Sequence record: OL964748.1
Direction: 5' to 3' (one strand)
DNA: 37,088 bases
Origin: Escherichia phage T7
The position numbers were made by a program, and so were the translations under genes. Positions 365 through 37,088 of the stretch are shown in pieces; position 1 is the first letter of the stretch; each line of letters begins with the position of its first letter. The notes under the pieces are model-generated. The model worked only from the letters and a program-made list of their open reading frames with translations. It searched no databases and had not been told where the DNA came from.

Positions 365-427
365 ATCATTGTCTTTATTAATACAATCATTGTCTTTATT
401 AATATAATCATTGTCTTTATTAATACA
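365..427. repeat. Perfect tandem triplication of a 21-bp AT-rich unit (atcattgtctttattaata[c/t]a) abutting phiOL
   Basis: Three head-to-tail copies at 365..385, 386..406, 407..427 (one c/t difference in copy 2); only copy 3 continues into the full promoter core. Confidence 0.9.
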
Positions 428-443
428 ACTCACTATAAGGAGA
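421..443 (+). promoter_or_regulatory. T7 RNA polymerase promoter phiOL
   Basis: taatacaactcactataaggaga, 17-mer core plus initiating region. Confidence 0.85.
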
Positions 444-494
444 GACAACTTAAAGAGACTTAAAAGATTAATTTAAAATTTATCAAAAAGAGTA

Positions 495-531
495 TTGACT
501 TAAAGTCTAACCTATAGGATACTTACAGCCA
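495..531 (+). promoter_or_regulatory. E. coli sigma70 early promoter A1
   Basis: -35 TTGACT (495..500), 17-bp spacer, -10 GATACT (518..523), start near 531 followed by atcgagagggacacggcgaa. Confidence 0.85.
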
Positions 532-642
532 TCGAGAGGGACACGGCGAATAGCCATCCCAATCGACACCGGGGTCAACCGGGCGCACAGTGCCTTCTAG
601 GTGACTTAAGCGCACCACGGCACATAAGGTGAAACAAAACGG

Positions 643-679
643 TTGACAACATGAAGTAAACACGGTACGATGTACCACA
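643..679 (+). promoter_or_regulatory. E. coli sigma70 early promoter A3
   Basis: -35 TTGACA (643..648), 17-bp spacer, -10 TACGAT (666..671); sequence matches T7 A3. Confidence 0.8.
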
Positions 680-853
680 TGAAACGACAGTGAGTCACCA
701 CACTGAAAGGTGATGCGGTCTAACGAAACCTGACCTAAGACGCTCTTTAACAATCTGGTAAATAGCTCTTGAGTGCATGACTAGCGGATAACTCAAGGGT
801 ATCGCAAGGTGCCCTTTATGATATTCACTAATAACTGCACGAGGTAACACAAG

Positions 854-1549
854 ATGGCTATGTCTAACATGACTTACAACAACGTTTTCGACCACGCTTA
901 CGAAATGCTGAAAGAAAACATCCGTTATGATGACATCCGTGACACTGATGACCTGCACGATGCTATTCACATGGCTGCCGATAATGCAGTTCCGCACTAC
1001 TACGCTGACATCTTTAGCGTAATGGCAAGTGAGGGCATTGACCTTGAGTTCGAAGACTCTGATCTGATGCCTGACACCAAGGACGTAATCCGCATCCTGC
1101 AAGCGCGTATCTATGAGCAATTAACGATTGACCTCTGGGAAGACGCAGAAGACTTGCTCAATGAATACTTGGAGGAAGTCGAGGAAGTCGCACGACAGAA
1201 AGAAATTGACCGCGCTAAGGCCCGTAAAGAACGTCACGAGGGGCGCTTAGAGGCACGCAGATTCAAACGTCGCAACCGCAAGGCACGTAAAGCACACAAA
1301 GCTAAGCGCGAAAGAATGCTTGCTGCGTGGCGATGGGCTGAACGTCAAGAACGGCGTAACCATGAGGTAGCTGTAGATGTACTAGGAAGAACCAATAACG
1401 CTATGCTCCGGGTCAACATGTCCTCTGGGGACTTTAAGGCGCTTGAGGAACGAATCGCGCTGCACTGGCGTAATGCTGACCGGATGGCTATCGCTAATGG
1501 TCTTACGCTCAACATTGATAAGCAACTTGACGCAATGTTAATGGGCTGA
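854..1549 (+). CDS. ocr: In-frame chimeric ORF: Ocr (gp0.3, anti-restriction DNA mimic) residues 1-111 fused to the C-terminal ~120 residues of gp0.7 (host-transcription shutoff region; kinase domain absent)
   Basis: 231-aa ORF; N-terminus [19 protein letters not shown]...[10 protein letters not shown] is Ocr; after E111 the sequence becomes basic ([18 protein letters not shown]...) and ends immediately upstream of the gene 1 leader, where gene 0.7 ends in T7. Confidence 0.85.
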
Positions 1550-1555
1550 TAGTCT

Positions 1556-1606
1556 TATCTTACAGGTCATCTGCGGGTGGCCTGAATAGGTACGATTTAC
1601 TAACTG
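1556..1606 (+). promoter_or_regulatory. RNase III processing site R1 / gene 1 leader (minor E. coli promoter C region)
   Basis: cttatcttacaggtcatctgcgggtggcctgaataggtacgatttac upstream of gene 1; matches T7 R1 region from memory. Confidence 0.5.
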
Positions 1607-1619
1607 GAAGAGGCACTAA

Positions 1620-4271
1620 ATGAACACGATTAACATCGCTAAGAACGACTTCTCTGACATCGAACTGGCTGCTATCCCGTTCAACACTCTGGCTGACCAT
1701 TACGGTGAGCGTTTAGCTCGCGAACAGTTGGCCCTTGAGCATGAGTCTTACGAGATGGGTGAAGCACGCTTCCGCAAGATGTTTGAGCGTCAACTTAAAG
1801 CTGGTGAGGTTGCGGATAACGCTGCCGCCAAGCCTCTCATCACTACCCTACTCCCTAAGATGATTGCACGCATCAACGACTGGTTTGAGGAAGTGAAAGC
1901 TAAGCGCGGCAAGCGCCAGACAGCCTTCCAGTTCCTGCAAGAAATCAAGCCGGAAGCCGTAGCGTACATCACCATTAAGACCACTCTGGCTTGCCTAACC
2001 AGTGCTGACAATACAACCGTTCAGGCTGTAGCAAGCGCAATCGGTCGGGCCATTGAGGACGAGGCTCGCTTCGGTCGTATCCGTGACCTTGAAGCTAAGC
2101 ACTTCAAGAAAAACGTTGAGGAACAACTCAACAAGCGCGTAGGGCACGTCTACAAGAAAGCATTTATGCGAGTTGTCGAGGCTGACATGCTCTCTAAGGG
2201 TCTACTCGGTGGCGAGGCGTGGTCTTCGTGGCATAAGGAAGACTCTATTCATGTAGGAGTACGCTGCATCGAGATGCTCATTGAGTCAACCGGAATGGTT
2301 AGCTTACACCGCCAAAATGCTGGCGTAGTAGGTCAAGACTCTGAGACTATCGAACTCGCACCTGAATACGCTGAGGCTATCGCAACCCGTGCAGGTGCGC
2401 TGGCTGGCATCTCTCCGATGTTCCAACCTTGCGTAGTTCCTCCTAAGCCGTGGACTGGCATTACTGGTGGTGGCTATTGGGCTAACGGTCGTCGTCCTCT
2501 GGCGCTGGTGCGTACTCACAGTAAGAAAGCACTGATGCGCTACGAAGACGTTTACATGCCTGAGGTGTACAAAGCGATTAACATTGCGCAAAACACCGCA
2601 TGGAAAATCAACAAGAAAGTCCTAGCGGTCGCCAACGTAATCACCAAGTGGAAGCATTGTCCGGTCGAGGACATCCCTGCGATTGAGCGTGAAGAACTCC
2701 CGATGAAACCGGAAGACATCGACATGAATCCTGAGGCTCTCACCGCGTGGAAACGTGCTGCCGCTGCTGTGTACCGCAAGGACAAGGCTCGCAAGTCTCG
2801 CCGTATCAGCCTTGAGTTCATGCTTGAGCAAGCCAATAAGTTTGCTAACCATAAGGCCATCTGGTTCCCTTACAACATGGACTGGCGCGGTCGTGTTTAC
2901 GCTGTGTCAATGTTCAACCCGCAAGGTAACGATATGACCAAAGGACTGCTTACGCTGGCGAAAGGTAAACCAATCGGTAAGGAAGGTTACTACTGGCTGA
3001 AAATCCACGGTGCAAACTGTGCGGGTGTCGATAAGGTTCCGTTCCCTGAGCGCATCAAGTTCATTGAGGAAAACCACGAGAACATCATGGCTTGCGCTAA
3101 GTCTCCACTGGAGAACACTTGGTGGGCTGAGCAAGATTCTCCGTTCTGCTTCCTTGCGTTCTGCTTTGAGTACGCTGGGGTACAGCACCACGGCCTGAGC
3201 TATAACTGCTCCCTTCCGCTGGCGTTTGACGGGTCTTGCTCTGGCATCCAGCACTTCTCCGCGATGCTCCGAGATGAGGTAGGTGGTCGCGCGGTTAACT
3301 TGCTTCCTAGTGAAACCGTTCAGGACATCTACGGGATTGTTGCTAAGAAAGTCAACGAGATTCTACAAGCAGACGCAATCAATGGGACCGATAACGAAGT
3401 AGTTACCGTGACCGATGAGAACACTGGTGAAATCTCTGAGAAAGTCAAGCTGGGCACTAAGGCACTGGCTGGTCAATGGCTGGCTTACGGTGTTACTCGC
3501 AGTGTGACTAAGCGTTCAGTCATGACGCTGGCTTACGGGTCCAAAGAGTTCGGCTTCCGTCAACAAGTGCTGGAAGATACCATTCAGCCAGCTATTGATT
3601 CCGGCAAGGGTCTGATGTTCACTCAGCCGAATCAGGCTGCTGGATACATGGCTAAGCTGATTTGGGAATCTGTGAGCGTGACGGTGGTAGCTGCGGTTGA
3701 AGCAATGAACTGGCTTAAGTCTGCTGCTAAGCTGCTGGCTGCTGAGGTCAAAGATAAGAAGACTGGAGAGATTCTTCGCAAGCGTTGCGCTGTGCATTGG
3801 GTAACTCCTGATGGTTTCCCTGTGTGGCAGGAATACAAGAAGCCTATTCAGACGCGCTTGAACCTGATGTTCCTCGGTCAGTTCCGCTTACAGCCTACCA
3901 TTAACACCAACAAAGATAGCGAGATTGATGCACACAAACAGGAGTCTGGTATCGCTCCTAACTTTGTACACAGCCAAGACGGTAGCCACCTTCGTAAGAC
4001 TGTAGTGTGGGCACACGAGAAGTACGGAATCGAATCTTTTGCACTGATTCACGACTCCTTCGGTACCATTCCGGCTGACGCTGCGAACCTGTTCAAAGCA
4101 GTGCGCGAAACTATGGTTGACACATATGAGTCTTGTGATGTACTGGCTGATTTCTACGACCAGTTCGCTGACCAGTTGCACGAGTCTCAATTGGACAAAA
4201 TGCCAGCACTTCCGGCTAAAGGTAACTTGAACCTCCGTGACATCTTAGAGTCGGACTTCGCGTTCGCGTAA
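1620..4271 (+). CDS. 1: T7 RNA polymerase (gene 1)
   Basis: 883-aa ORF starting MNTINIAKNDFSDIELAAIPFNTLADHYGERLAREQLALEHESYEMGEARFRKMFERQLKAGEVADNAAAKPLITTLLPKMIARINDWFEEVKAKRGKR..., ending ...LRDILESDFAFA. Confidence 0.98.
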   Translation: MNTINIAKNDFSDIELAAIPFNTLADHYGERLAREQLALEHESYEMGEARFRKMFERQLKAGEVADNAAAKPLITTLLPKMIARINDWFEEVKAKRGKRQTAFQFLQEIKPEAVAYITIKTTLACLTSADNTTVQAVASAIGRAIEDEARFGRIRDLEAKHFKKNVEEQLNKRVGHVYKKAFMRVVEADMLSKGLLGGEAWSSWHKEDSIHVGVRCIEMLIESTGMVSLHRQNAGVVGQDSETIELAPEYAEAIATRAGALAGISPMFQPCVVPPKPWTGITGGGYWANGRRPLALVRTHSKKALMRYEDVYMPEVYKAINIAQNTAWKINKKVLAVANVITKWKHCPVEDIPAIEREELPMKPEDIDMNPEALTAWKRAAAAVYRKDKARKSRRISLEFMLEQANKFANHKAIWFPYNMDWRGRVYAVSMFNPQGNDMTKGLLTLAKGKPIGKEGYYWLKIHGANCAGVDKVPFPERIKFIEENHENIMACAKSPLENTWWAEQDSPFCFLAFCFEYAGVQHHGLSYNCSLPLAFDGSCSGIQHFSAMLRDEVGGRAVNLLPSETVQDIYGIVAKKVNEILQADAINGTDNEVVTVTDENTGEISEKVKLGTKALAGQWLAYGVTRSVTKRSVMTLAYGSKEFGFRQQVLEDTIQPAIDSGKGLMFTQPNQAAGYMAKLIWESVSVTVVAAVEAMNWLKSAAKLLAAEVKDKKTGEILRKRCAVHWVTPDGFPVWQEYKKPIQTRLNLMFLGQFRLQPTINTNKDSEIDAHKQESGIAPNFVHSQDGSHLRKTVVWAHEKYGIESFALIHDSFGTIPADAANLFKAVRETMVDTYESCDVLADFYDQFADQLHESQLDKMPALPAKGNLNLRDILESDFAFA

Positions 4272-4279
4272 CGCCAAAT

Positions 4280-4302
4280 CAATACGACTCACTATAGGAG
4301 AA
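4280..4302 (+). promoter_or_regulatory. Single hybrid T7 promoter phi1.1A/phi1.1B (upstream flank of 1.1A, downstream of 1.1B)
   Basis: caatacgactcactataggagaacc lies 8 bp after the gene 1 stop; gene 1 stop to gene 1.1 start is 109 bp instead of 184 bp. Confidence 0.8.
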
Positions 4303-4380
4303 CCTTAAGGTTTAACTTTAAGACCCTTAAGTGTTAATTAGAGATTTAAATTAAAGAATTAATAAGAGAGGACTTTAAGT

Positions 4381-4509
4381 ATGCGTAACTTCGAAAAGAT
4401 GACCAAACGTTCTAACCGTAATGCTCGTGACTTCGAGGCAACCAAAGGTCGCAAGTTGAATAAGACTAAGCGTGACCGCTCTCACAAGCGTAGCTGGGAG
4501 GGTCAGTAA
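4381..4509 (+). CDS. 1.1: gene 1.1 protein (42 aa)
   Basis: MRNFEKMTKRSNRNARDFEATKGRKLNKTKRDRSHKRSWEGQ; below the ORF-track size cutoff, translated by hand. Confidence 0.85.
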   Translation: MRNFEKMTKRSNRNARDFEATKGRKLNKTKRDRSHKRSWEGQ

Positions 4510-4510
4510 G

Positions 4511-4768
4511 ATGGGACGTTTATATAGTGGTAATCTGGCAGCATTCAAGGCAGCAACAAACAAGCTGTTCCAGTTAGACTTAGCTGTCATTTATGATGAC
4601 TGGTATGATGCCTATACAAGAAAAGATTGCATACGGTTACGTATTGAGGACAGGAGTGGAAACCTGATTGATACTAGCACCTTCTACCACCACGACGAGG
4701 ACGTTCTGTTCAATATGTGTACTGATTGGTTGAACCATATGTATGACCAGTTGAAGGACTGGAAGTAA
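4511..4768 (+). CDS. 1.2: gene 1.2 protein (inhibitor of host dGTPase)
   Basis: Internal ATG at 4511 gives 85 aa MGRLYSGNLAAFKAATNKLFQLDLAVIYDDWYD...; the track ORF 4472..4768 is an upstream extension. Confidence 0.85.
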   Translation: MGRLYSGNLAAFKAATNKLFQLDLAVIYDDWYDAYTRKDCIRLRIEDRSGNLIDTSTFYHHDEDVLFNMCTDWLNHMYDQLKDWK

Positions 4769-4788
4769 TACGACTCAGTATAGGGACA
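4766..4788 (+). promoter_or_regulatory. T7 promoter phi1.3
   Basis: taatacgactcagtatagggaca, followed by the R1.3 hairpin region. Confidence 0.85.
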
Positions 4789-4848
4789 ATGCTTAAGGTC
4801 GCTCTCTAGGAGTGGCCTTAGTCATTTAACCAATAGGAGATAAACATT

Positions 4849-5928
4849 ATGATGAACATTAAGACTAACCCGTTTAAAGCCGTGTCTTTCGTAGAGTCTG
4901 CCATTAAGAAGGCTCTGGATAACGCTGGGTATCTTATCGCTGAAATCAAGTACGATGGTGTACGCGGGAACATCTGCGTAGACAATACTGCTAACAGTTA
5001 CTGGCTCTCTCGTGTATCTAAAACGATTCCGGCACTGGAGCACTTAAACGGGTTTGATGTTCGCTGGAAGCGTCTACTGAACGATGACCGTTGCTTCTAC
5101 AAAGATGGCTTTATGCTTGATGGGGAACTCATGGTCAAGGGCGTAGACTTTAACACAGGGTCCGGCCTACTGCGTACCAAATGGACTGACACGAAGAACC
5201 AAGAGTTCCATGAAGAGTTATTCGTTGAACCAATCCGTAAGAAAGATAAAGTTCCCTTTAAGCTGCACACTGGACACCTTCACATAAAACTGTACGCTAT
5301 CCTCCCGCTGCACATCGTGGAGTCTGGAGAAGACTGTGATGTCATGACGTTGCTCATGCAGGAACACGTTAAGAACATGCTGCCTCTGCTACAGGAATAC
5401 TTCCCTGAAATCGAATGGCAAGCGGCTGAATCTTACGAGGTCTACGATATGGTAGAACTACAGCAACTGTACGAGCAGAAGCGAGCAGAAGGCCATGAGG
5501 GTCTCATTGTGAAAGACCCGATGTGTATCTATAAGCGCGGTAAGAAATCTGGCTGGTGGAAAATGAAACCTGAGAACGAAGCTGACGGTATCATTCAGGG
5601 TCTGGTATGGGGTACAAAAGGTCTGGCTAATGAAGGTAAAGTGATTGGTTTTGAGGTGCTTCTTGAGAGTGGTCGTTTAGTTAACGCCACGAATATCTCT
5701 CGCGCCTTAATGGATGAGTTCACTGAGACAGTAAAAGAGGCCACCCTAAGTCAATGGGGATTCTTTAGCCCATACGGTATTGGCGACAACGATGCTTGTA
5801 CTATTAACCCTTACGATGGCTGGGCGTGTCAAATTAGCTACATGGAGGAAACACCTGATGGCTCTTTGCGGCACCCATCGTTCGTAATGTTCCGTGGCAC
5901 CGAGGACAACCCTCAAGAGAAAATGTAA
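4849..5928 (+). CDS. 1.3: ATP-dependent DNA ligase (gene 1.3)
   Basis: 359-aa ORF with the ligase adenylation motif context (IAEIKYDGVRG). Confidence 0.95.
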   Translation: MMNIKTNPFKAVSFVESAIKKALDNAGYLIAEIKYDGVRGNICVDNTANSYWLSRVSKTIPALEHLNGFDVRWKRLLNDDRCFYKDGFMLDGELMVKGVDFNTGSGLLRTKWTDTKNQEFHEELFVEPIRKKDKVPFKLHTGHLHIKLYAILPLHIVESGEDCDVMTLLMQEHVKNMLPLLQEYFPEIEWQAAESYEVYDMVELQQLYEQKRAEGHEGLIVKDPMCIYKRGKKSGWWKMKPENEADGIIQGLVWGTKGLANEGKVIGFEVLLESGRLVNATNISRALMDEFTETVKEATLSQWGFFSPYGIGDNDACTINPYDGWACQISYMEETPDGSLRHPSFVMFRGTEDNPQEKM

Positions 5929-5978: not shown

Positions 5979-6001
5979 TTTTACGACTCACTAAAGGAGG
6001 T
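5979..6001 (+). promoter_or_regulatory. T7 promoter phi1.5 with altered upstream edge (-16/-15 TT instead of AA)
   Basis: ttttacgactcactaaaggagg; core -14..+6 intact, -17..-15 region formed by the gene 1.4 deletion junction. Confidence 0.7.
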
Positions 6002-7275: not shown

Positions 7276-7974
7276 ATGGCTAAGAAGATTTTCACCTCTG
7301 CGCTGGGTACCGCTGAACCTTACGCTTACATCGCCAAGCCGGACTACGGCAACGAAGAGCGTGGCTTTGGGAACCCTCGTGGTGTCTATAAAGTTGACCT
7401 GACTATTCCCAACAAAGACCCGCGCTGCCAGCGTATGGTCGATGAAATCGTGAAGTGTCACGAAGAGGCTTATGCTGCTGCCGTTGAGGAATACGAAGCT
7501 AATCCACCTGCTGTAGCTCGTGGTAAGAAACCGCTGAAACCGTATGAGGGTGACATGCCGTTCTTCGATAACGGTGACGGTACGACTACCTTTAAGTTCA
7601 AATGCTACGCGTCTTTCCAAGACAAGAAGACCAAAGAGACCAAGCACATCAATCTTGTTGTGGTTGACTCAAAAGGTAAGAAGATGGAAGACGTTCCGAT
7701 TATCGGTGGTGGCTCTAAGCTGAAAGTTAAATATTCTCTGGTTCCATACAAGTGGAACACTGCTGTAGGTGCGAGCGTTAAGCTGCAACTGGAATCCGTG
7801 ATGCTGGTCGAACTGGCTACCTTTGGTGGCGGTGAAGACGATTGGGCTGACGAAGTTGAAGAGAACGGCTATGTTGCCTCTGGTTCTGCCAAAGCGAGCA
7901 AACCACGCGACGAAGAAAGCTGGGACGAAGACGACGAAGAGTCCGAGGAAGCAGACGAAGACGGAGACTTCTAA
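7276..7974 (+). CDS. 2.5: Single-stranded DNA-binding protein (gene 2.5)
   Basis: 232-aa ORF with acidic C-terminal tail ...DEDDEESEEADEDGDF. Confidence 0.95.
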   Translation: MAKKIFTSALGTAEPYAYIAKPDYGNEERGFGNPRGVYKVDLTIPNKDPRCQRMVDEIVKCHEEAYAAAVEEYEANPPAVARGKKPLKPYEGDMPFFDNGDGTTTFKFKCYASFQDKKTKETKHINLVVVDSKGKKMEDVPIIGGGSKLKVKYSLVPYKWNTAVGASVKLQLESVMLVELATFGGGEDDWADEVEENGYVASGSAKASKPRDEESWDEDDEESEEADEDGDF

Positions 7975-8394
7975 GTGGAACTGCGGGAGAAAATCCTTGA
8001 GCGAATCAAGGTGACTTCCTCTGGGTGTTGGGAGTGGCAGGGCGCTACGAACAATAAAGGGTACGGGCAGGTGTGGTGCAGCAATACCGGAAAGGTTGTC
8101 TACTGTCATCGCGTAATGTCTAATGCTCCGAAAGGTTCTACCGTCCTGCACTCCTGTGATAATCCATTATGTTGTAACCCTGAACACCTATCCATAGGAA
8201 CTCCAAAAGAGAACTCCACTGACATGGTAAATAAGGGTCGCTCACACAAGGGGTATAAACTTTCAGACGAAGACGTAATGGCAATCATGGAGTCCAGCGA
8301 GTCCAATGTATCCTTAGCTCGCACCTATGGTGTCTCCCAACAGACTATTTGTGATATACGCAAAGTGAGGCGACATGGCAGGTTACGGCGCTAA
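7975..8394 (+). CDS. 2.8: gene 2.8 protein, HNH-type endonuclease-like (GTG start)
   Basis: 139-aa ORF with HNH-like motif (CHRVMSNAP...HSCDNPLCCNPEHL); GTG start immediately after the 2.5 stop. Confidence 0.8.
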   Translation: MELREKILERIKVTSSGCWEWQGATNNKGYGQVWCSNTGKVVYCHRVMSNAPKGSTVLHSCDNPLCCNPEHLSIGTPKENSTDMVNKGRSHKGYKLSDEDVMAIMESSESNVSLARTYGVSQQTICDIRKVRRHGRLRR

Positions 8395-9280: not shown

Positions 9281-9303
9281 TAATTGAACTCACTAAAGGG
9301 AGA
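9281..9303 (+). promoter_or_regulatory. T7 promoter phi3.8
   Basis: aattaattgaactcactaaagggaga. Confidence 0.8.
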
Positions 9304-11164: not shown

Positions 11165-11187
11165 TAATACGACTCACTAAAGGCCAC
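11165..11187 (+). promoter_or_regulatory. T7 promoter phi4.3
   Basis: taatacgactcactaaaggcc. Confidence 0.8.
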
Positions 11188-11324: not shown

Positions 11325-11594
11325 ATGTCTAACGTAGCTGAAACTATCCGTCTATCCGATACAGCTGACCAGTGGAACCGTCGAGTCCACATCAACGTTC
11401 GCAACGGTAAGGCGACTATGGTTTACCGCTGGAAGGACTCTAAGTCCTCTAAGAATCACACTCAGCGTATGACGTTGACAGATGAGCAAGCACTGCGTCT
11501 GGTCAATGCGCTTACCAAAGCTGCCGTGACAGCAATTCATGAAGCTGGTCGCGTCAATGAAGCTATGGCTATCCTCGACAAGATTGATAACTAA
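11325..11594 (+). CDS. 4.5: gene 4.5 protein (89 aa)
   Basis: MSNVAETIRLSDTADQWNRRVHINVRNGKATMVYRWKD...; the track ORF 11232..11594 is an upstream extension. Confidence 0.85.
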   Translation: MSNVAETIRLSDTADQWNRRVHINVRNGKATMVYRWKDSKSSKNHTQRMTLTDEQALRLVNALTKAAVTAIHEAGRVNEAMAILDKIDN

Positions 11595-11993: not shown

Positions 11994-14108
11994 ATGATCG
12001 TTTCTGACATCGAAGCTAACGCCCTCTTAGAGAGCGTCACTAAGTTCCACTGCGGGGTTATCTACGACTACTCCACCGCTGAGTACGTAAGCTACCGTCC
12101 GAGTGACTTCGGTGCGTATCTGGATGCGCTGGAAGCCGAGGTTGCACGAGGCGGTCTTATTGTGTTCCACAACGGTCACAAGTATGACGTTCCTGCATTG
12201 ACCAAACTGGCAAAGTTGCAATTGAACCGAGAGTTCCACCTTCCTCGTGAGAACTGTATTGACACCCTTGTGTTGTCACGTTTGATTCATTCCAACCTCA
12301 AGGACACCGATATGGGTCTTCTGCGTTCCGGCAAGTTGCCCGGAAAACGCTTTGGGTCTCACGCTTTGGAGGCGTGGGGTTATCGCTTAGGCGAGATGAA
12401 GGGTGAATACAAAGACGACTTTAAGCGTATGCTTGAAGAGCAGGGTGAAGAATACGTTGACGGAATGGAGTGGTGGAACTTCAACGAAGAGATGATGGAC
12501 TATAACGTTCAGGACGTTGTGGTAACTAAAGCTCTCCTTGAGAAGCTACTCTCTGACAAACATTACTTCCCTCCTGAGATTGACTTTACGGACGTAGGAT
12601 ACACTACGTTCTGGTCAGAATCCCTTGAGGCCGTTGACATTGAACATCGTGCTGCATGGCTGCTCGCTAAACAAGAGCGCAACGGGTTCCCGTTTGACAC
12701 AAAAGCAATCGAAGAGTTGTACGTAGAGTTAGCTGCTCGCCGCTCTGAGTTGCTCCGTAAATTGACCGAAACGTTCGGCTCGTGGTATCAGCCTAAAGGT
12801 GGCACTGAGATGTTCTGCCATCCGCGAACAGGTAAGCCACTACCTAAATACCCTCGCATTAAGACACCTAAAGTTGGTGGTATCTTTAAGAAGCCTAAGA
12901 ACAAGGCACAGCGAGAAGGCCGTGAGCCTTGCGAACTTGATACCCGCGAGTACGTTGCTGGTGCTCCTTACACCCCAGTTGAACATGTTGTGTTTAACCC
13001 TTCGTCTCGTGACCACATTCAGAAGAAACTCCAAGAGGCTGGGTGGGTCCCGACCAAGTACACCGATAAGGGTGCTCCTGTGGTGGACGATGAGGTACTC
13101 GAAGGAGTACGTGTAGATGACCCTGAGAAGCAAGCCGCTATCGACCTCATTAAAGAGTACTTGATGATTCAGAAGCGAATCGGACAGTCTGCTGAGGGAG
13201 ACAAAGCATGGCTTCGTTATGTTGCTGAGGATGGTAAGATTCATGGTTCTGTTAACCCTAATGGAGCAGTTACGGGTCGTGCGACCCATGCGTTCCCAAA
13301 CCTTGCGCAAATTCCGGGTGTACGTTCTCCTTATGGAGAGCAGTGTCGCGCTGCTTTTGGCGCTGAGCACCATTTGGATGGGATAACTGGTAAGCCTTGG
13401 GTTCAGGCTGGCATCGACGCATCCGGTCTTGAGCTACGCTGCTTGGCTCACTTCATGGCTCGCTTTGATAACGGCGAGTACGCTCACGAGATTCTTAACG
13501 GCGACATCCACACTAAGAACCAGATAGCTGCTGAACTACCTACCCGAGATAACGCTAAGACGTTCATCTATGGGTTCCTCTATGGTGCTGGTGATGAGAA
13601 GATTGGACAGATTGTTGGTGCTGGTAAAGAGCGCGGTAAGGAACTCAAGAAGAAATTCCTTGAGAACACCCCCGCGATTGCAGCACTCCGCGAGTCTATC
13701 CAACAGACACTTGTCGAGTCCTCTCAATGGGTAGCTGGTGAGCAACAAGTCAAGTGGAAACGCCGCTGGATTAAAGGTCTGGATGGTCGTAAGGTACACG
13801 TTCGTAGTCCTCACGCTGCCTTGAATACCCTACTGCAATCTGCTGGTGCTCTCATCTGCAAACTGTGGATTATCAAGACCGAAGAGATGCTCGTAGAGAA
13901 AGGCTTGAAGCATGGCTGGGATGGGGACTTTGCGTACATGGCATGGGTACATGATGAAATCCAAGTAGGCTGCCGTACCGAAGAGATTGCTCAGGTGGTC
14001 ATTGAGACCGCACAAGAAGCGATGCGCTGGGTTGGAGACCACTGGAACTTCCGGTGTCTTCTGGATACCGAAGGTAAGATGGGTCCTAATTGGGCGATTT
14101 GCCACTGA
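11994..14108 (+). CDS. 5: DNA polymerase (gene 5), family A polymerase with 3'-5' exonuclease
   Basis: 704-aa [42 protein letters not shown]... Confidence 0.98.
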
Positions 14109-14123
14109 TACAGGAGGCTACTC

Positions 14124-14480
14124 ATGAACGAAAGACACTTAACAGGTGCTGCTTCTGAAATGCTAGTAGCCTACAAATTTACCAAAGCTGGGTACACTGT
14201 CTATTACCCTATGCTGACTCAGAGTAAAGAGGACTTGGTTGTATGTAAGGATGGTAAATTTAGTAAGGTTCAGGTTAAAACAGCCACAACGGTTCAAACC
14301 AACACAGGAGATGCCAAGCAGGTTAGGCTAGGTGGATGCGGTAGGTCCGAATATAAGGATGGAGACTTTGACATTCTTGCGGTTGTGGTTGACGAAGATG
14401 TGCTTATTTTCACATGGGACGAAGTAAAAGGTAAGACATCCATGTGTGTCGGCAAGAGAAACAAAGGCATAAAACTATAG
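14124..14480 (+). CDS. 5.3: gene 5.3 protein
   Basis: 118-aa ORF at the canonical position after gene 5. Confidence 0.85.
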   Translation: MNERHLTGAASEMLVAYKFTKAGYTVYYPMLTQSKEDLVVCKDGKFSKVQVKTATTVQTNTGDAKQVRLGGCGRSEYKDGDFDILAVVVDEDVLIFTWDEVKGKTSMCVGKRNKGIKL

Positions 14481-19209: not shown

Positions 19210-20133
19210 ATGGCTGAATCTAATGCAGACGTATATGCATCTTTTGGCGTGAACTCCGCTGTGATGTCTGGTGGTTCCGTTGAGGAACATGAGCAGAACA
19301 TGCTGGCTCTTGATGTTGCTGCCCGTGATGGCGATGATGCAATCGAGTTAGCGTCAGACGAAGTGGAAACAGAACGTGACCTGTATGACAACTCTGACCC
19401 GTTCGGTCAAGAGGATGACGAAGGCCGCATTCAGGTTCGTATCGGTGATGGCTCTGAGCCGACCGATGTGGACACTGGAGAAGAAGGCGTTGAGGGCACC
19501 GAAGGTTCCGAAGAGTTTACCCCACTGGGCGAGACTCCAGAAGAACTGGTAGCTGCCTCTGAGCAACTTGGTGAGCACGAAGAGGGCTTCCAAGAGATGA
19601 TTAACATTGCTGCTGAGCGTGGCATGAGTGTCGAGACCATTGAGGCTATCCAGCGTGAGTACGAGGAGAACGAAGAGTTGTCCGCCGAGTCCTACGCTAA
19701 GCTGGCTGAAATTGGCTACACGAAGGCTTTCATTGACTCGTATATCCGTGGTCAAGAAGCTCTGGTGGAGCAGTACGTAAACAGTGTCATTGAGTACGCT
19801 GGTGGTCGTGAACGTTTTGATGCACTGTATAACCACCTTGAGACGCACAACCCTGAGGCTGCACAGTCGCTGGATAATGCGTTGACCAATCGTGACTTAG
19901 CGACCGTTAAGGCTATCATCAACTTGGCTGGTGAGTCTCGCGCTAAGGCGTTCGGTCGTAAGCCAACTCGTAGTGTGACTAATCGTGCTATTCCGGCTAA
20001 ACCTCAGGCTACCAAGCGTGAAGGCTTTGCGGACCGTAGCGAGATGATTAAAGCTATGAGTGACCCTCGGTATCGCACAGATGCCAACTATCGTCGTCAA
20101 GTCGAACAGAAAGTAATCGATTCGAACTTCTGA
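19210..20133 (+). CDS. 9: Capsid assembly (scaffolding) protein (gene 9)
   Basis: 307-aa acidic ORF MAESNADVYASFGVNSAVMSGGSVEEHEQNMLALD... Confidence 0.95.
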   Translation: MAESNADVYASFGVNSAVMSGGSVEEHEQNMLALDVAARDGDDAIELASDEVETERDLYDNSDPFGQEDDEGRIQVRIGDGSEPTDVDTGEEGVEGTEGSEEFTPLGETPEELVAASEQLGEHEEGFQEMINIAAERGMSVETIEAIQREYEENEELSAESYAKLAEIGYTKAFIDSYIRGQEALVEQYVNSVIEYAGGRERFDALYNHLETHNPEAAQSLDNALTNRDLATVKAIINLAGESRAKAFGRKPTRSVTNRAIPAKPQATKREGFADRSEMIKAMSDPRYRTDANYRRQVEQKVIDSNF

Positions 20134-20146
20134 TAGACTTCGAAAT

Positions 20147-20169
20147 TAATACGACTCACTATAGGGAGA
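20147..20169 (+). promoter_or_regulatory. T7 promoter phi10 with the gene 10 leader and strong RBS
   Basis: taatacgactcactatagggagaccacaacggtttccctctagaaataattttgtttaactttaagaaggagatatacat ATG. Confidence 0.95.
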
Positions 20170-20226
20170 CCACAACGGTTTCCCTCTAGAAATAATTTTG
20201 TTTAACTTTAAGAAGGAGATATACAT

Positions 20227-25584: not shown

Positions 25585-27828
25585 ATGAGTAAAATTGAAT
25601 CTGCCCTTCAAGCGGCACAACCGGGACTCTCTCGGTTACATGGTGGTGCTGGAGGTATGGGCTATCGTGCAGCAACCACTCAGGCCGAACAGCCAAGGTC
25701 AAGCCTATTGGACACCATTGGTCGGTTCGCTAAGGCTGGTGCCGATATGTATACCGCTAAGGAACAACGAGCACGAGACCTAGCTGATGAACGCTCTAAC
25801 GAGATTATCCGTAAGCTGACCCCTGAGCAACGTCGAGAAGCTCTCAACAACGGGACCCTTCTGTATCAGGATGACCCATACGCTATGGAAGCACTCCGAG
25901 TCAAGACTGGTCGTAACGCTGCGTATCTTGTGGACGATGACGTTATGCAGAAGATAAAAGAGGGTGTCTTCCGTACTCGCGAAGAGATGGAAGAGTATCG
26001 CCATAGTCGCCTTCAAGAGGGCGCTAAGGTATACGCTGAGCAGTTCGGCATCGACCCTGAGGACGTTGATTATCAGCGTGGTTTCAACGGGGACATTACC
26101 GAGCGTAACATCTCGCTGTATGGTGCGCATGATAACTTCTTGAGCCAGCAAGCTCAGAAGGGCGCTATCATGAACAGCCGAGTGGAACTCAACGGTGTCC
26201 TTCAAGACCCTGATATGCTGCGTCGTCCAGACTCTGCTGACTTCTTTGAGAAGTATATCGACAACGGTCTGGTTACTGGCGCAATCCCATCTGATGCTCA
26301 AGCCACACAGCTTATAAGCCAAGCGTTCAGTGACGCTTCTAGCCGTGCTGGTGGTGCTGACTTCCTGATGCGAGTCGGTGACAAGAAGGTAACACTTAAC
26401 GGAGCCACTACGACTTACCGAGAGTTGATTGGTGAGGAACAGTGGAACGCTCTCATGGTCACAGCACAACGTTCTCAGTTTGAGACTGACGCGAAGCTGA
26501 ACGAGCAGTATCGCTTGAAGATTAACTCTGCGCTGAACCAAGAGGACCCAAGGACAGCTTGGGAGATGCTTCAAGGTATCAAGGCTGAACTAGATAAGGT
26601 CCAACCTGATGAGCAGATGACACCACAACGTGAGTGGCTAATCTCCGCACAGGAACAAGTTCAGAATCAGATGAACGCATGGACGAAAGCTCAGGCCAAG
26701 GCTCTGGACGATTCCATGAAGTCAATGAACAAACTTGACGTAATCGACAAGCAATTCCAGAAGCGAATCAACGGTGAGTGGGTCTCAACGGATTTTAAGG
26801 ATATGCCAGTCAACGAGAACACTGGTGAGTTCAAGCATAGCGATATGGTTAACTACGCCAATAAGAAGCTCGCTGAGATTGACAGTATGGACATTCCAGA
26901 CGGTGCCAAGGATGCTATGAAGTTGAAGTACCTTCAAGCGGACTCTAAGGACGGAGCATTCCGTACAGCCATCGGAACCATGGTCACTGACGCTGGTCAA
27001 GAGTGGTCTGCCGCTGTGATTAACGGTAAGTTACCAGAACGAACCCCAGCTATGGATGCTCTGCGCAGAATCCGCAATGCTGACCCTCAGTTGATTGCTG
27101 CGCTATACCCAGACCAAGCTGAGCTATTCCTGACGATGGACATGATGGACAAGCAGGGTATTGACCCTCAGGTTATTCTTGATGCCGACCGACTGACTGT
27201 TAAGCGGTCCAAAGAGCAACGCTTTGAGGATGATAAAGCATTCGAGTCTGCACTGAATGCATCTAAGGCTCCTGAGATTGCCCGTATGCCAGCGTCACTG
27301 CGCGAATCTGCACGTAAGATTTATGACTCCGTTAAGTATCGCTCGGGGAACGAAAGCATGGCTATGGAGCAGATGACCAAGTTCCTTAAGGAATCTACCT
27401 ACACGTTCACTGGTGATGATGTTGACGGTGATACCGTTGGTGTGATTCCTAAGAATATGATGCAGGTTAACTCTGACCCGAAATCATGGGAGCAAGGTCG
27501 GGATATTCTGGAGGAAGCACGTAAGGGAATCATTGCGAGCAACCCTTGGATAACCAATAAGCAACTGACCATGTATTCTCAAGGTGACTCCATTTACCTT
27601 ATGGACACCACAGGTCAAGTCAGAGTCCGATACGACAAAGAGTTACTCTCGAAGGTCTGGAGTGAGAACCAGAAGAAACTCGAAGAGAAAGCTCGTGAGA
27701 AGGCTCTGGCTGATGTGAACAAGCGAGCACCTATAGTTGCCGCTACGAAGGCCCGTGAAGCTGCTGCTAAACGAGTCCGAGAGAAACGTAAACAGACTCC
27801 TAAGTTCATCTACGGACGTAAGGAGTAA
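25585..27828 (+). CDS. 15: Internal core protein C (gene 15)
   Basis: 747-aa ORF MSKIESALQAAQPGLSRLHGGAGGMGYRAA... Confidence 0.95.
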   Translation: MSKIESALQAAQPGLSRLHGGAGGMGYRAATTQAEQPRSSLLDTIGRFAKAGADMYTAKEQRARDLADERSNEIIRKLTPEQRREALNNGTLLYQDDPYAMEALRVKTGRNAAYLVDDDVMQKIKEGVFRTREEMEEYRHSRLQEGAKVYAEQFGIDPEDVDYQRGFNGDITERNISLYGAHDNFLSQQAQKGAIMNSRVELNGVLQDPDMLRRPDSADFFEKYIDNGLVTGAIPSDAQATQLISQAFSDASSRAGGADFLMRVGDKKVTLNGATTTYRELIGEEQWNALMVTAQRSQFETDAKLNEQYRLKINSALNQEDPRTAWEMLQGIKAELDKVQPDEQMTPQREWLISAQEQVQNQMNAWTKAQAKALDDSMKSMNKLDVIDKQFQKRINGEWVSTDFKDMPVNENTGEFKHSDMVNYANKKLAEIDSMDIPDGAKDAMKLKYLQADSKDGAFRTAIGTMVTDAGQEWSAAVINGKLPERTPAMDALRRIRNADPQLIAALYPDQAELFLTMDMMDKQGIDPQVILDADRLTVKRSKEQRFEDDKAFESALNASKAPEIARMPASLRESARKIYDSVKYRSGNESMAMEQMTKFLKESTYTFTGDDVDGDTVGVIPKNMMQVNSDPKSWEQGRDILEEARKGIIASNPWITNKQLTMYSQGDSIYLMDTTGQVRVRYDKELLSKVWSENQKKLEEKAREKALADVNKRAPIVAATKAREAAAKRVREKRKQTPKFIYGRKE

Positions 27829-27854
27829 CTAAAGGCTACATAAGGAGGCCCTAA

Positions 27855-30800
27855 ATGGATAAGTACGATAAGAACGTACCAAGTGATTATGATGGTCTGT
27901 TCCAAAAGGCTGCTGATGCCAACGGGGTCTCTTATGACCTTTTACGTAAAGTCGCTTGGACAGAATCACGATTTGTGCCTACAGCAAAATCTAAGACTGG
28001 ACCATTAGGCATGATGCAATTTACCAAGGCAACCGCTAAGGCCCTCGGTCTGCGAGTTACCGATGGTCCAGACGACGACCGACTGAACCCTGAGTTAGCT
28101 ATTAATGCTGCCGCTAAGCAACTTGCAGGTCTGGTAGGGAAGTTTGATGGCGATGAACTCAAAGCTGCCCTTGCGTACAACCAAGGCGAGGGACGCTTGG
28201 GTAATCCACAACTTGAGGCGTACTCTAAGGGAGACTTCGCATCAATCTCTGAGGAGGGACGTAACTACATGCGTAACCTTCTGGATGTTGCTAAGTCACC
28301 TATGGCTGGACAGTTGGAAACTTTTGGTGGCATAACCCCAAAGGGTAAAGGCATTCCGGCTGAGGTAGGATTGGCTGGAATTGGTCACAAGCAGAAAGTA
28401 ACACAGGAACTTCCTGAGTCCACAAGTTTTGACGTTAAGGGTATCGAACAGGAGGCTACGGCGAAACCATTCGCCAAGGACTTTTGGGAGACCCACGGAG
28501 AAACACTTGACGAGTACAACAGTCGTTCAACCTTCTTCGGATTCAAAAATGCTGCCGAAGCTGAACTCTCCAACTCAGTAGCTGGGATGGCTTTCCGTGC
28601 TGGTCGTCTCGATAATGGTTTTGATGTGTTTAAAGACACCATTACGCCGACTCGCTGGAACTCTCACATCTGGACTCCAGAGGAGTTAGAGAAGATTCGA
28701 ACAGAGGTTAAGAACCCTGCGTACATCAACGTTGTAACTGGTGGTTCCCCTGAGAACCTCGATGACCTCATTAAATTGGCTAACGAGAACTTTGAGAATG
28801 ACTCCCGCGCTGCCGAGGCTGGCCTAGGTGCCAAACTGAGTGCTGGTATTATTGGTGCTGGTGTGGACCCGCTTAGCTATGTTCCTATGGTCGGTGTCAC
28901 TGGTAAGGGCTTTAAGTTAATCAATAAGGCTCTTGTAGTTGGTGCCGAAAGTGCTGCTCTGAACGTTGCATCCGAAGGTCTCCGTACCTCCGTAGCTGGT
29001 GGTGACGCAGACTATGCGGGTGCTGCCTTAGGTGGCTTTGTGTTTGGCGCAGGCATGTCTGCAATCAGTGACGCTGTAGCTGCTGGACTGAAACGCAGTA
29101 AACCAGAAGCTGAGTTCGACAATGAGTTCATCGGTCCTATGATGCGATTGGAAGCCCGTGAGACAGCACGAAACGCCAACTCTGCGGACCTCTCTCGGAT
29201 GAACACTGAGAACATGAAGTTTGAAGGTGAACATAATGGTGTCCCTTATGAGGACTTACCAACAGAGAGAGGTGCCGTGGTGTTACATGATGGCTCCGTT
29301 CTAAGTGCAAGCAACCCAATCAACCCTAAGACTCTAAAAGAGTTCTCCGAGGTTGACCCTGAGAAGGCTGCGCGAGGAATCAAACTGGCTGGGTTCACCG
29401 AGATTGGCTTGAAGACCTTGGGGTCTGACGATGCTGACATCCGTAGAGTGGCTATCGACCTCGTTCGCTCTCCTACTGGTATGCAGTCTGGTGCCTCAGG
29501 TAAGTTCGGTGCAACAGCTTCTGACATCCATGAGAGACTTCATGGTACTGACCAGCGTACTTATAATGACTTGTACAAAGCAATGTCTGACGCTATGAAA
29601 GACCCTGAGTTCTCTACTGGCGGCGCTAAGATGTCCCGTGAAGAAACTCGATACACTATCTACCGTAGAGCGGCACTAGCTATTGAGCGTCCAGAACTAC
29701 AGAAGGCACTCACTCCGTCTGAGAGAATCGTTATGGACATCATTAAGCGTCACTTTGACACCAAGCGTGAACTTATGGAAAACCCAGCAATATTCGGTAA
29801 CACAAAGGCTGTGAGTATCTTCCCTGAGAGTCGCCACAAAGGTACTTACGTTCCTCACGTATATGACCGTCATGCCAAGGCGCTGATGATTCAACGCTAC
29901 GGTGCCGAAGGTTTGCAGGAAGGGATTGCCCGCTCATGGATGAACAGCTACGTCTCCAGACCTGAGGTCAAGGCCAGAGTCGATGAGATGCTTAAGGAAT
30001 TACACGGGGTGAAGGAAGTAACACCAGAGATGGTAGAGAAGTACGCTATGGATAAGGCTTATGGTATCTCCCACTCAGACCAGTTCACCAACAGTTCCAT
30101 AATAGAAGAGAACATTGAGGGCTTAGTAGGTATCGAGAATAACTCATTCCTTGAGGCACGTAACTTGTTTGATTCGGACCTATCCATCACTATGCCAGAC
30201 GGACAGCAATTCTCAGTGAATGACCTAAGGGACTTCGATATGTTCCGCATCATGCCCGCGTATGACCGCCGTGTCAATAGTGACATCGCCATCATGGGGT
30301 CTACTGGTAAAACCACTAAGGAACTTAAGGATGAGATTTTGGCTCTCAAAGCGAAAGCTGAGGGAGACGGTAAGAAGACTGGCGAGGTACATGCTTTAAT
30401 GGATACCGTTAAGATTCTTACTGGTCGTGCTAGACGCAATCAGGACACTGTGTGGGAAACCTCACTGCGTGCCATCAATGACCTAGGGTTCTTCGCTAAG
30501 AACGCCTACATGGGTGCTCAGAACATTACGGAGATTGCTGGGATGATTGTCACTGGTAACGTTCGTGCTCTAGGGCATGGTATCCCAATTCTGCGTGATA
30601 CACTCTACAAGTCTAAACCAGTTTCAGCTAAGGAACTCAAGGAACTCCATGCGTCTCTGTTCGGGAAGGAGGTGGACCAGTTGATTCGGCCTAAACGTGC
30701 TGACATTGTGCAGCGCCTAAGGGAAGCAACTGATACCGGACCTGCCGTGGCGAACATCGTAGGGACCTTGAAGTATTCAACACAGGAACTGGCTGCTCGC

Positions 30801-31811
30801 TCTCCGTGGACTAAGCTACTGGACGGAACCACTAACTACCTTCTGGATGCTGCGCGTCAAGGTATGCTTGGGGATGTTATTAGTGCCACCCTAACAGGTA
30901 AGACTACCCGCTGGGAGAAAGAAGGCTTCCTTCGTGGTGCCTCCGTAACTCCTGAGCAGATGGCTGGCATCAAGTCTCTCATCAAGGAACATATGGTACG
31001 CGGTGAGGACGGGAAGTTTACCGTTAAGGACAAGCAAGCGTTCTCTATGGACCCACGGGCTATGGACTTATGGAGACTGGCTGACAAGGTAGCTGATGAG
31101 GCAATGCTGCGTCCACATAAGGTGTCCTTACAGGATTCCCATGCGTTCGGAGCACTAGGTAAGATGGTTATGCAGTTTAAGTCTTTCACTATCAAGTCCC
31201 TTAACTCTAAGTTCCTGCGAACCTTCTATGATGGATACAAGAACAACCGAGCGATTGACGCTGCGCTGAGCATCATCACCTCTATGGGTCTCGCTGGTGG
31301 TTTCTATGCTATGGCTGCACACGTCAGAGCATACGCTCTGCCTAAGGAGAAACGTAAGGAGTACTTGGAGCGTGCACTGGACCCAACCATGATTGCCCAC
31401 GCTGCGTTATCTCGTAGTTCTCAATTGGGTGTTCCTTTGGCTATGGTTGACCTAGTTGGTGGTGTTTTAGGGTTCGAGTCCTCCAAGATGGCTCGCTCTA
31501 CGATTCTACCTAAGGACACCGTGAAGGAACGTGACCCAAACAAACCGTACACCTCTAGAGAGGTAATGGGCGCTATGGGTTCAAACCTTCTGGAACAGAT
31601 GCCTTCGGCTGGCTTTGTGGCTAACGTAGGGGCTACCTTAATGAATGCTGCTGGCGTGGTCAACTCACCTAATAAAGCAACCGAGCAGGACTTCATGACT
31701 GGTCTTATGAACTCCACAAAAGAGTTAGTACCGAACGACCCATTGACTCAACAGCTTGTGTTGAAGATTTATGAGGCGAACGGTGTTAACTTGAGGGAGC
31801 GTAGGAAATAA
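27855..31811 (+). CDS. 16: Internal core protein D (gene 16) with N-terminal lytic transglycosylase domain
   Basis: 1318-aa ORF; N-terminal region has a transglycosylase-like motif (TESRFVPTAKSKTGPLGMMQF). Confidence 0.95.
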   Translation: MDKYDKNVPSDYDGLFQKAADANGVSYDLLRKVAWTESRFVPTAKSKTGPLGMMQFTKATAKALGLRVTDGPDDDRLNPELAINAAAKQLAGLVGKFDGDELKAALAYNQGEGRLGNPQLEAYSKGDFASISEEGRNYMRNLLDVAKSPMAGQLETFGGITPKGKGIPAEVGLAGIGHKQKVTQELPESTSFDVKGIEQEATAKPFAKDFWETHGETLDEYNSRSTFFGFKNAAEAELSNSVAGMAFRAGRLDNGFDVFKDTITPTRWNSHIWTPEELEKIRTEVKNPAYINVVTGGSPENLDDLIKLANENFENDSRAAEAGLGAKLSAGIIGAGVDPLSYVPMVGVTGKGFKLINKALVVGAESAALNVASEGLRTSVAGGDADYAGAALGGFVFGAGMSAISDAVAAGLKRSKPEAEFDNEFIGPMMRLEARETARNANSADLSRMNTENMKFEGEHNGVPYEDLPTERGAVVLHDGSVLSASNPINPKTLKEFSEVDPEKAARGIKLAGFTEIGLKTLGSDDADIRRVAIDLVRSPTGMQSGASGKFGATASDIHERLHGTDQRTYNDLYKAMSDAMKDPEFSTGGAKMSREETRYTIYRRAALAIERPELQKALTPSERIVMDIIKRHFDTKRELMENPAIFGNTKAVSIFPESRHKGTYVPHVYDRHAKALMIQRYGAEGLQEGIARSWMNSYVSRPEVKARVDEMLKELHGVKEVTPEMVEKYAMDKAYGISHSDQFTNSSIIEENIEGLVGIENNSFLEARNLFDSDLSITMPDGQQFSVNDLRDFDMFRIMPAYDRRVNSDIAIMGSTGKTTKELKDEILALKAKAEGDGKKTGEVHALMDTVKILTGRARRNQDTVWETSLRAINDLGFFAKNAYMGAQNITEIAGMIVTGNVRALGHGIPILRDTLYKSKPVSAKELKELHASLFGKEVDQLIRPKRADIVQRLREATDTGPAVANIVGTLKYSTQELAARSPWTKLLDGTTNYLLDAARQGMLGDVISATLTGKTTRWEKEGFLRGASVTPEQMAGIKSLIKEHMVRGEDGKFTVKDKQAFSMDPRAMDLWRLADKVADEAMLRPHKVSLQDSHAFGALGKMVMQFKSFTIKSLNSKFLRTFYDGYKNNRAIDAALSIITSMGLAGGFYAMAAHVRAYALPKEKRKEYLERALDPTMIAHAALSRSSQLGVPLAMVDLVGGVLGFESSKMARSTILPKDTVKERDPNKPYTSREVMGAMGSNLLEQMPSAGFVANVGATLMNAAGVVNSPNKATEQDFMTGLMNSTKELVPNDPLTQQLVLKIYEANGVNLRERRK

Positions 31812-31831
31812 TACGACTCACTATAGGGAGA
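31809..31831 (+). promoter_or_regulatory. T7 promoter phi17
   Basis: taatacgactcactatagggaga. Confidence 0.9.
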
Positions 31832-31883
31832 GGCGAAATAATCTTCTCCCTGTAGTCTCTTAGATTTACTTTAAGGAGGTCAA

Positions 31884-36937: not shown

Positions 36938-37088
36938 TCTCACAGTGTACGGACCTAAAGTTCCCCCATAGGGGTACCTAAAGCCCAGCCAATCACCTAA
37001 AGTCAATGACCTTGAGGGTTCCCTAAGGGTTGGGGATGACCCTTGGGTTTGTCTTTGGGTGTTACCTTGAGTGTCTCTCTGTGTCCCT
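36938..37088. repeat. Right terminal direct repeat
   Basis: Identical to 1..151. Confidence 0.95.

Follow-up and report, generated by a model that had tools for sequence, protein, structure and literature searches.

Early transcription of bacteriophage T7 by the host RNA polymerase is served by three major promoters at the left genome end, A1, A2 and A3. The T7 genome of GenBank record OL964748.1, which is the stretch of DNA analysed here over its full length of 37,088 nucleotides (the window), raises the question whether A2 has been lost from this set and, if so, by what kind of event, in which lineage, and with what consequence for the phage.

Wild-type T7 record V01146 (39,937 bp; annotated starts of A1, A2 and A3 at 498, 626 and 750) was used as the reference throughout. 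On whole-genome BLAST, OL964748.1 proved to be a mutant T7 genome, nearly complete and with terminal repeats of 151 bp, split by about ten deletions into blocks collinear with the reference. It is a laboratory mutant and not a natural variant. Its first 1.5 kb have the sequence of the T7 left end, and by megablast, T7 records were identical (100%) to window positions 400–900.

Deletion junction and remaining early promoters

Positions 405–582 of the window aligned with wild-type (wt) positions 372–549 at 100% identity, and positions 574–1185 with wt 645–1256 with one mismatch, sited in gene 0.3. The two BLAST blocks overlap by exactly nine bases, GTCAACCGG, at 574–582 (plus strand, as for A1, A3, the first early ORF and promoter C below), and block overlap, alignment and repeat analysis of the wild type together mark this site as a deletion junction with a single surviving repeat copy. 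Wild-type T7 holds GTCAACCGG at 541–549 and 645–653, and again at a distant site at 3836, and in the window the junction copy is accompanied only by the distant one, at 2285. The bases flanking the two neighbouring wild-type copies differ (G...A versus C...G in the alignment), and the repeat is therefore exactly 9 bp long. Missing from the window are 104 bp, corresponding to wt 550–653 or, equivalently, wt 541–644, which include the A2 start (wt 626) and the A2 hexamers TTGACA-18-TAAGAT at wt 589–618. One repeat copy was kept, no bases were inserted or substituted, and the sequence around the junction matched the wild type at 100%. The 9-bp identity at the junction is not due to chance: for a random junction its probability is about 4e-6 (4^-9), and GTCAACCGG is expected 0.23 times per 37 kb.

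The original prediction had the 9-mer present twice in the wild type, flanking A2, and had proposed that A2 was lost from the early region by one repeat-mediated event that took out 104 bp. Both repeat copies were located where this account places them, and the reference alignment, which had been suggested as the check, returned neither A2 nor the wild-type spacing. The further wording that exactly the A2 promoter was removed stands in so far as the lost segment includes no other annotated element, with the caveat that it spans from about -76/-85 to about +27/+18 of A2. According to the V01146 annotation, wt 541–653 is non-coding and the first CDS begins at wt 925; in the wild type, gene 0.3 begins 272 bp downstream of the right-hand GTCAACCGG copy.

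A promoter scan of the wild type returned three sites (462–490, 589–618 and 714–742), and the identical scan of the window returned two only, 495–523 and 643–671, so that of the wild-type set with starts at wt 498, 626 and 750, A1 and A3 are present and A2 is absent. Both remaining promoters are base-identical to the wild type. The intact A1 promoter (495–531) has its -35 hexamer TTGACT at 495–500, its -10 hexamer GATACT at 518–523 and a start A at 531 (ATCGAGAGGG...), within the block that is 100% identical to wt 372–549. The intact A3 promoter (643–679) has TTGACA at 643–648, TACGAT at 666–671 and a start A at 679 (ATGAAACGACAG...), within the block aligned with wt 645–1256. The interval between the two starts (531–679) is shortened to 148 bp versus 252 bp in the wild type (498 to 750), in agreement with the predicted spacing of ~148 bp instead of ~252 bp, and the distance from A1 +1 to the A3 -35 hexamer is 112 bp.

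It had also been expected that A1 and A3 alone would serve early transcription. This is correct for the major promoters, but the minor E. coli promoter C is retained as well, with its mapped start (wt 3113, V01146 annotation) at window position 1562, in the block 1173–4297 that corresponds to wt 2724–5848, and with no nearby substitutions. Promoter C is located directly upstream of gene 1 (T7 RNA polymerase, 1620–4271). Minor promoter B (wt 1514) was lost via another deletion of 1480 bp between 13-bp repeats AGGAAGTCGAGGA, which removes genes 0.4–0.6, the kinase domain and promoter B, and which is an event separate from the A2 loss. The first early ORF (854–1549, junction at 1173–1185) is consequently an in-frame fusion of genes 0.3 and 0.7, in which residues 1–110 of Ocr (gp0.3) with substitution G70D are followed by 121 C-terminal residues from gp0.7, which include W314R and F318S; in OL964749, the coordinates 854–1549 are annotated as ‘protein kinase’. 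This 0.3::0.7 junction is a recurrent allele, because the identical 1480-bp junction is carried by MZ375236 (transfer 20) and PV223880 (from another laboratory), which are unrelated records that retain A2. Between A1 and the start of gene 1 there are 1089 bp in the window versus 2673 bp in the wild type.

A genome-reduced laboratory lineage

Among 50,697 phage records, a 37-mer across the A2 junction matched two only, OL964749 (T7_1t2, 37,063 bp) and OL964750 (T7_1t3, 37,455 bp), and a 31-mer across the junction had no match in the viral contigs of IMG/VR; within these two collections, the allele was not found outside the lineage of OL964748.1 and these two records. The two GenBank clones T7_1t2 and T7_1t3 would correspond, judging by the accession series, the ‘t’ clone names, the adjacent seszw record, the genome size and the signature deletions, to clones T7_100_t2 and T7_100_t3 of Yuan et al. 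2022 (PMC9825161), and OL964748.1 is most likely their third sibling, i.e. T7_100_t1. The accession that follows these two, OL964751, holds a mutant of Salmonella phage seszw, also used in the same study, and a full-text literature search for OL964740, OL964741, OL964749 and OL964750 returned no mention of these accessions.

The study (Yuan et al., NAR 2022) applied iterative CRISPR/Cas9 genome reduction (CiPGr) to T7 and seszw, with cassettes that have 50-bp arms, are directed at predicted genes, and take out a whole gene or a segment of exactly 100 bp within one, during passaging for many transfers on hosts expressing SpCas9 and a spacer library (PMC9825161). The ‘t’ clones were picked after an eight-transfer competition of pooled mutant populations on the plain host; for T7_100_t2, a genome reduction of 7.1%, host killing 10% faster than that of the wild type, and a fitness 0.9 doublings/h below the wild type, by which it was beaten in direct competition, were reported (PMC9825161). 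With its 37,063 bp, OL964749 is 7.2% shorter than the wild type, in agreement with this reduction.

The signature of this study was identified in the window as 100-bp deletions of wt 8163–8262, about 13343–13442, 14172–14271 and 39565–39664, which affect the 1.6/1.7 boundary (gene 1.7), the gene 4.3 start, gene 4.7, and non-coding DNA to the right of gene 19.5. In addition, gene 1.4 was removed exactly (wt 7608–7763, 156 bp), and most of gene 7.7 is gone (wt 19848–20216, 369 bp). In the alignment to the wild type, junctions of the CiPGr type are at 5981/5982, 6380/6381, about 11183, 11912/11913, 17476/17477 and 36824/36825. An apparent deletion in gene 4.3 with 10-bp microhomology and two SNPs was rejected as an alignment artefact, the event being a plain designed deletion of 100 bp. 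The clone, which is attributed to the cassette-100 library, also holds deletions of the whole-gene type, which suggests library mixing or recombination between libraries.

The A2 loss shares with these designed deletions, of which the window has at least six, the study lineage and the genome. A designed edit was nevertheless ruled out as its source. The CiPGr deletions comprise exactly 100 bp or one whole annotated gene and have no homology at the junction, and the 50-bp arms need no microhomology; the A2 deletion has a size of 104 bp, is bounded by a 9-bp repeat and is sited in non-coding DNA (wt 541–653), whereas the cassettes were aimed at predicted protein-coding genes. On these grounds the A2 deletion was not designed. 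Undesigned losses of ‘large fragments’ are named by the authors for gp0.3–0.6, gp4.3–4.7 and gp19.5, together with point mutations, and gp0.3 is outside their removable set (PMC9825161); the main text of that paper has no mention of A2 or of promoters.

OL964748.1, OL964749 and OL964750 differ elsewhere, i.e. in a 75-bp loss at phi1.1A/B, in a 100-bp segment at window 14283–14382, in gene 7.7, and in having three versus four copies of a 21-bp repeat. Other left-end changes that are unique to these three genomes accompany the A2 loss in all of them, and this sharing points to one origin of the A2 deletion, after which the remaining genome recombined. The A2 loss is one allele in a CRISPR-reduced, heavily passaged lineage, which has about ten further deletions and some 35 to 40 point changes.

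Several of the other changes are also situated at the left end. The 21-bp unit AATCATTGTCTTTATTAATAC is present at 364–428 in 3.1 tandem copies, versus one copy in the wild type and four in OL964750, directly upstream of the T7 promoter phiOL, of which it overlaps the first bases, and adjoining the left-end replication and packaging signals. A 41-mer across the repeat boundary was found in OL964749 and OL964750 only, and the array is unstable, since its copy number varies between the siblings. The terminal repeat (1–151 and 36938–37088) has 151 bp versus 160 bp in the wild type; one G was lost from a run of five, and an 8-bp deletion (wt 72–79, CCTTCGGT) destroys the palindrome GTCAACCTTCGGTTGAC. 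These changes are alike at both genome ends and are shared with OL964749 and OL964750, and not with other CiPGr clones. Around the minor promoter A0 (wt 224), which is directed leftward, positions 152–236 show T>C at wt 163, a rearranged array of CCTAAAG-type heptamers and 13-mers with one unit gained and one lost, and T>A within wt GCCTACACC.

Further to the right, T7 RNA polymerase has substitutions P100Q (window 1918) and Q184R (window 2170), and gene 7.3 has a 12-bp in-frame deletion (wt 19579–19590, window 17219/17220). Missense changes in proteins of the virion and of DNA ejection are clustered over 25640–32523, comprising gp15 R19H, gp16 G809S, N990D, K1158R and A1193V, and gp17 N158D and K214E; gp17 N158D was reported also by the CiPGr authors and in a study of T7 evolution under UV.

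Origin of the deletion

The preferred reading, for which we estimate a probability of about 0.85, is that A2 was lost through an undesigned deletion between 9-bp direct repeats in the laboratory T7 lineage, and that the allele, being near-neutral or slightly beneficial, rose in frequency with the left-end haplotype. In an ancestor of the lineage, the deletion would have joined the two GTCAACCGG copies around A2, leaving one, either by slipped mispairing in replication or by annealing of resected ends, as proposed from the structure of the product. The anatomy of the junction is that of a classic T7 deletion between short direct repeats. This is a long-established mechanism in T7, and spontaneous early-region deletions between such repeats were reportedly described by Studier et al. 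in 1979, Pierce, Kong and Masker in 1991, and Cunningham et al. in 1997.

Three other undesigned deletions with alike anatomy were identified in OL964748.1, having 13-bp, 17-bp and 9-bp repeats. Besides the 0.3::0.7 fusion with its 13-bp repeats, 75 bp were lost at phi1.1A/phi1.1B between 17-bp identical cores AATACGACTCACTATAG, giving one fused promoter at 4281–4297, which is present in OL964748.1 and absent from OL964749 and OL964750. As in the A2 loss, a set of tandem promoters was cut by one via direct-repeat recombination, but unlike in the A2 loss these are promoters of the phage polymerase, the recombination took place inside the consensus, and a hybrid promoter was left. In gene 3.8, 277 bp were lost between 9-bp repeats AAAGGGAGA (wt 11177–11185 and 11454–11462, window 9295–9303), and the phi3.8 promoter start region was thereby joined to the interior of gene 3.8.

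Homologies of 7–10 bp have been described at deletions in T7 evolution lines (PMC8923235), and such deletions are known from further published evolution lines (PMC6042481). The evolved holin-deleted T7 genome MZ318362 has a deletion of 2168 bp (wt 579–2746) between 11-bp repeats AAGTCGCACGA (MZ318362.1 568–578), which takes A2, A3 and genes 0.3–0.7 and leaves A1 and C. The right-hand repeats of this deletion and of the 1480-bp allele adjoin each other, which makes wt 2724–2746 a deletion hotspot. The A2 loss is similar to these known early-region deletions in removing one uninterrupted segment from the non-essential left 3 kb with one repeat copy kept, in a viable phage and after serial passage, and its 9-bp repeat is within the 7–17 bp range of known T7 deletion repeats. 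The recurrent alleles, i.e. the 1.48-kb 0.3::0.7 fusion, a 2.1-kb 0.3::1 fusion and the 2168-bp deletion of MZ318362, remove genes, whereas the A2 allele removes only 104 bp, no coding sequence, and just one of the three major promoters. A close counterpart is D111, a viable phage and classic in vitro transcription template in which A1 is the only major early promoter; the 579–2746 deletion of MZ318362 may be the D111 allele or a similar one. Deletions of the D111 type share with the A2 allele the loss of A2, the retention of A1 and viability, but A3 and early genes are lost as well, and in the window A3 and the 0.3 start are untouched.

Two structural explanations were rejected. When wt 541–653 was folded as single-stranded DNA, z-scores of -0.63 and -0.35 were obtained for the two strands, and with no unusual structure hairpin-promoted slippage was discarded. 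That the repeats stem from an ancient tandem duplication is unsupported, because the -90 to +40 units of A1, A2 and A3 have in common only a 17-bp core of A2 and A3, and because the two wild-type copies of GTCAACCGG differ in their distance to the -35 box. The 17-bp core is in itself a longer direct repeat, with a spacing of 125 bp in the wild type, and longer repeats are said, after Pierce et al. 1991, to recombine more readily. The hybrid junction that would be predicted from it was present in none of the 50,697 phage records. Use of the 9-bp pair and not the 17-bp pair is compatible with a single stochastic event, and equally with selection or a targeted break, and was given little weight.

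A targeted break would be the starting point if the deletion had been provoked by Cas9, with a spacer directing a cut between the repeats, repair by 9-bp annealing, and selection for the loss of the protospacer as a CRISPR escape. Double-strand breaks between direct repeats reportedly stimulate T7 deletions of this type, according to Kong and Masker in 1994, NGG motifs are present on both strands of the deleted 104 bp, and a Cas9 break would account for the use of the shorter repeat pair. The lineage had passed many transfers on hosts with SpCas9 and a spacer library, and the CiPGr authors attributed some of the undesigned losses to CRISPR-escape mutations (PMC9825161). We nevertheless consider this origin improbable: the spacers were aimed at predicted genes, and from the right-hand repeat to the nearest of these, gene 0.3, the distance is 272 bp. 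Moreover, an efficiently cut site should give repeated escapes, whereas the deletion was found in this lineage only, versus roughly 100 T7 genomes (mostly CiPGr mutants of the MZ3752xx and OL9647xx series) in which the A2 segment is present with ≥99% identity. The same set of genomes bears on the scarcely credible alternative that A2 is present in the phage and was collapsed from the assembly. All three genomes with the junction are assemblies from one laboratory and pipeline, but about 90 other genomes of that pipeline retain A2, and the junction is common to three separately assembled genomes that differ elsewhere. Moreover, a 9-bp repeat is far below assembly k-mer length and cannot collapse 104 bp of unique sequence.

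An undesigned deletion between direct repeats being the preferred reading, there are two ways in which the allele may have risen, and hitch-hiking and selection fit the single-origin data equally well. That the deletion itself was positively selected appears rather unlikely. It would have acted through better early expression or genome entry, for example by less promoter interference downstream of A1, or by matching the left end to the short early region and to the altered gp16. In favour of this, all three carriers come from a competition that enriched fast killers, the allele travels with other unique left-end changes, four gp16 substitutions and gp15 R19H, and the whole early region is short, as seen in the A1 to gene 1 distance. 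Gp16 governs the ejection of T7 DNA. Opposed to it are the single origin with no parallel recurrence of the deletion, the conservation of A2 across T7-like phages, and the loss of T7_100_t2 to the wild type in direct competition (PMC9825161). More doubtful still is the wider proposal that, in a genome-reduced phage, the A2 loss belongs to a set of jointly selected changes which remodel the module for genome entry and early expression. The other members of the set could be the 151-bp terminal repeat, in which the palindrome is broken, the tripled 21-bp unit before phiOL, the short early region, and the gp15 and gp16 substitutions. If true, it would imply that the number and spacing of the three left-end promoters are adjusted to how long the early region is and to the apparatus of DNA ejection.

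Expected consequences for early transcription and genome reduction

[quoted passage not shown] At 112 bp from the A1 start to the A3 -35 hexamer, A1 and A3 would be far enough apart for joint occupancy, and all early transcripts would still cross the unchanged leader and the gene 0.3 start, giving unchanged mature messages. Total early initiation is expected to fall modestly, with a left end shorter by 104 bp. The major promoters lie within the first ~850 bp to ~1 kb of the genome, a segment that enters the cell without transcription, after which host RNA polymerase pulls in the next ~6 kb of T7 DNA (PMC6042481; PMC11863960); A1 and A3 of the window are still well inside the transcription-independent segment.

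A large functional effect of the A2 loss is unlikely, because A1, A3 and C remain and because T7 without A2 and A3, or without the whole early promoter block, is viable. The larger early-region loss in MZ318362, with neither A2 nor A3, is an example of such tolerance, and phage-engineering work has already demonstrated that the whole promoter block can be replaced by a single promoter: T7 with A0–A3 and 0.3–0.7 swapped for one short promoter forms plaques like the wild type (bioRxiv 10.1101/2021.08.23.457391). The clone of OL964748.1 is presumably viable itself and the A2 region dispensable. The window keeps every wild-type gene outside the listed deletions, which fall in genes reported as removable in the study, and OL964749 and OL964750 are plaque-purified clones. 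In nature A2 is presumably of value, as suggested by conservation of the A2 segment in 373 records of T7-like phages.

The A2 loss is thus genuine but unremarkable, a laboratory allele that belongs to a well-known class of T7 mutations and comes from a published and deposited lineage. Being a loss of A2 only, it makes one clean and small addition to the long list of repeat-mediated deletions in this phage, and it illustrates that gene-centred analyses of genome reduction can miss regulatory losses that were not designed. The allele could also serve as a natural reagent for the question why T7-like phages have kept three strong promoters in tandem, be it for redundancy, for the rate of genome entry, or in connection with promoter interference.
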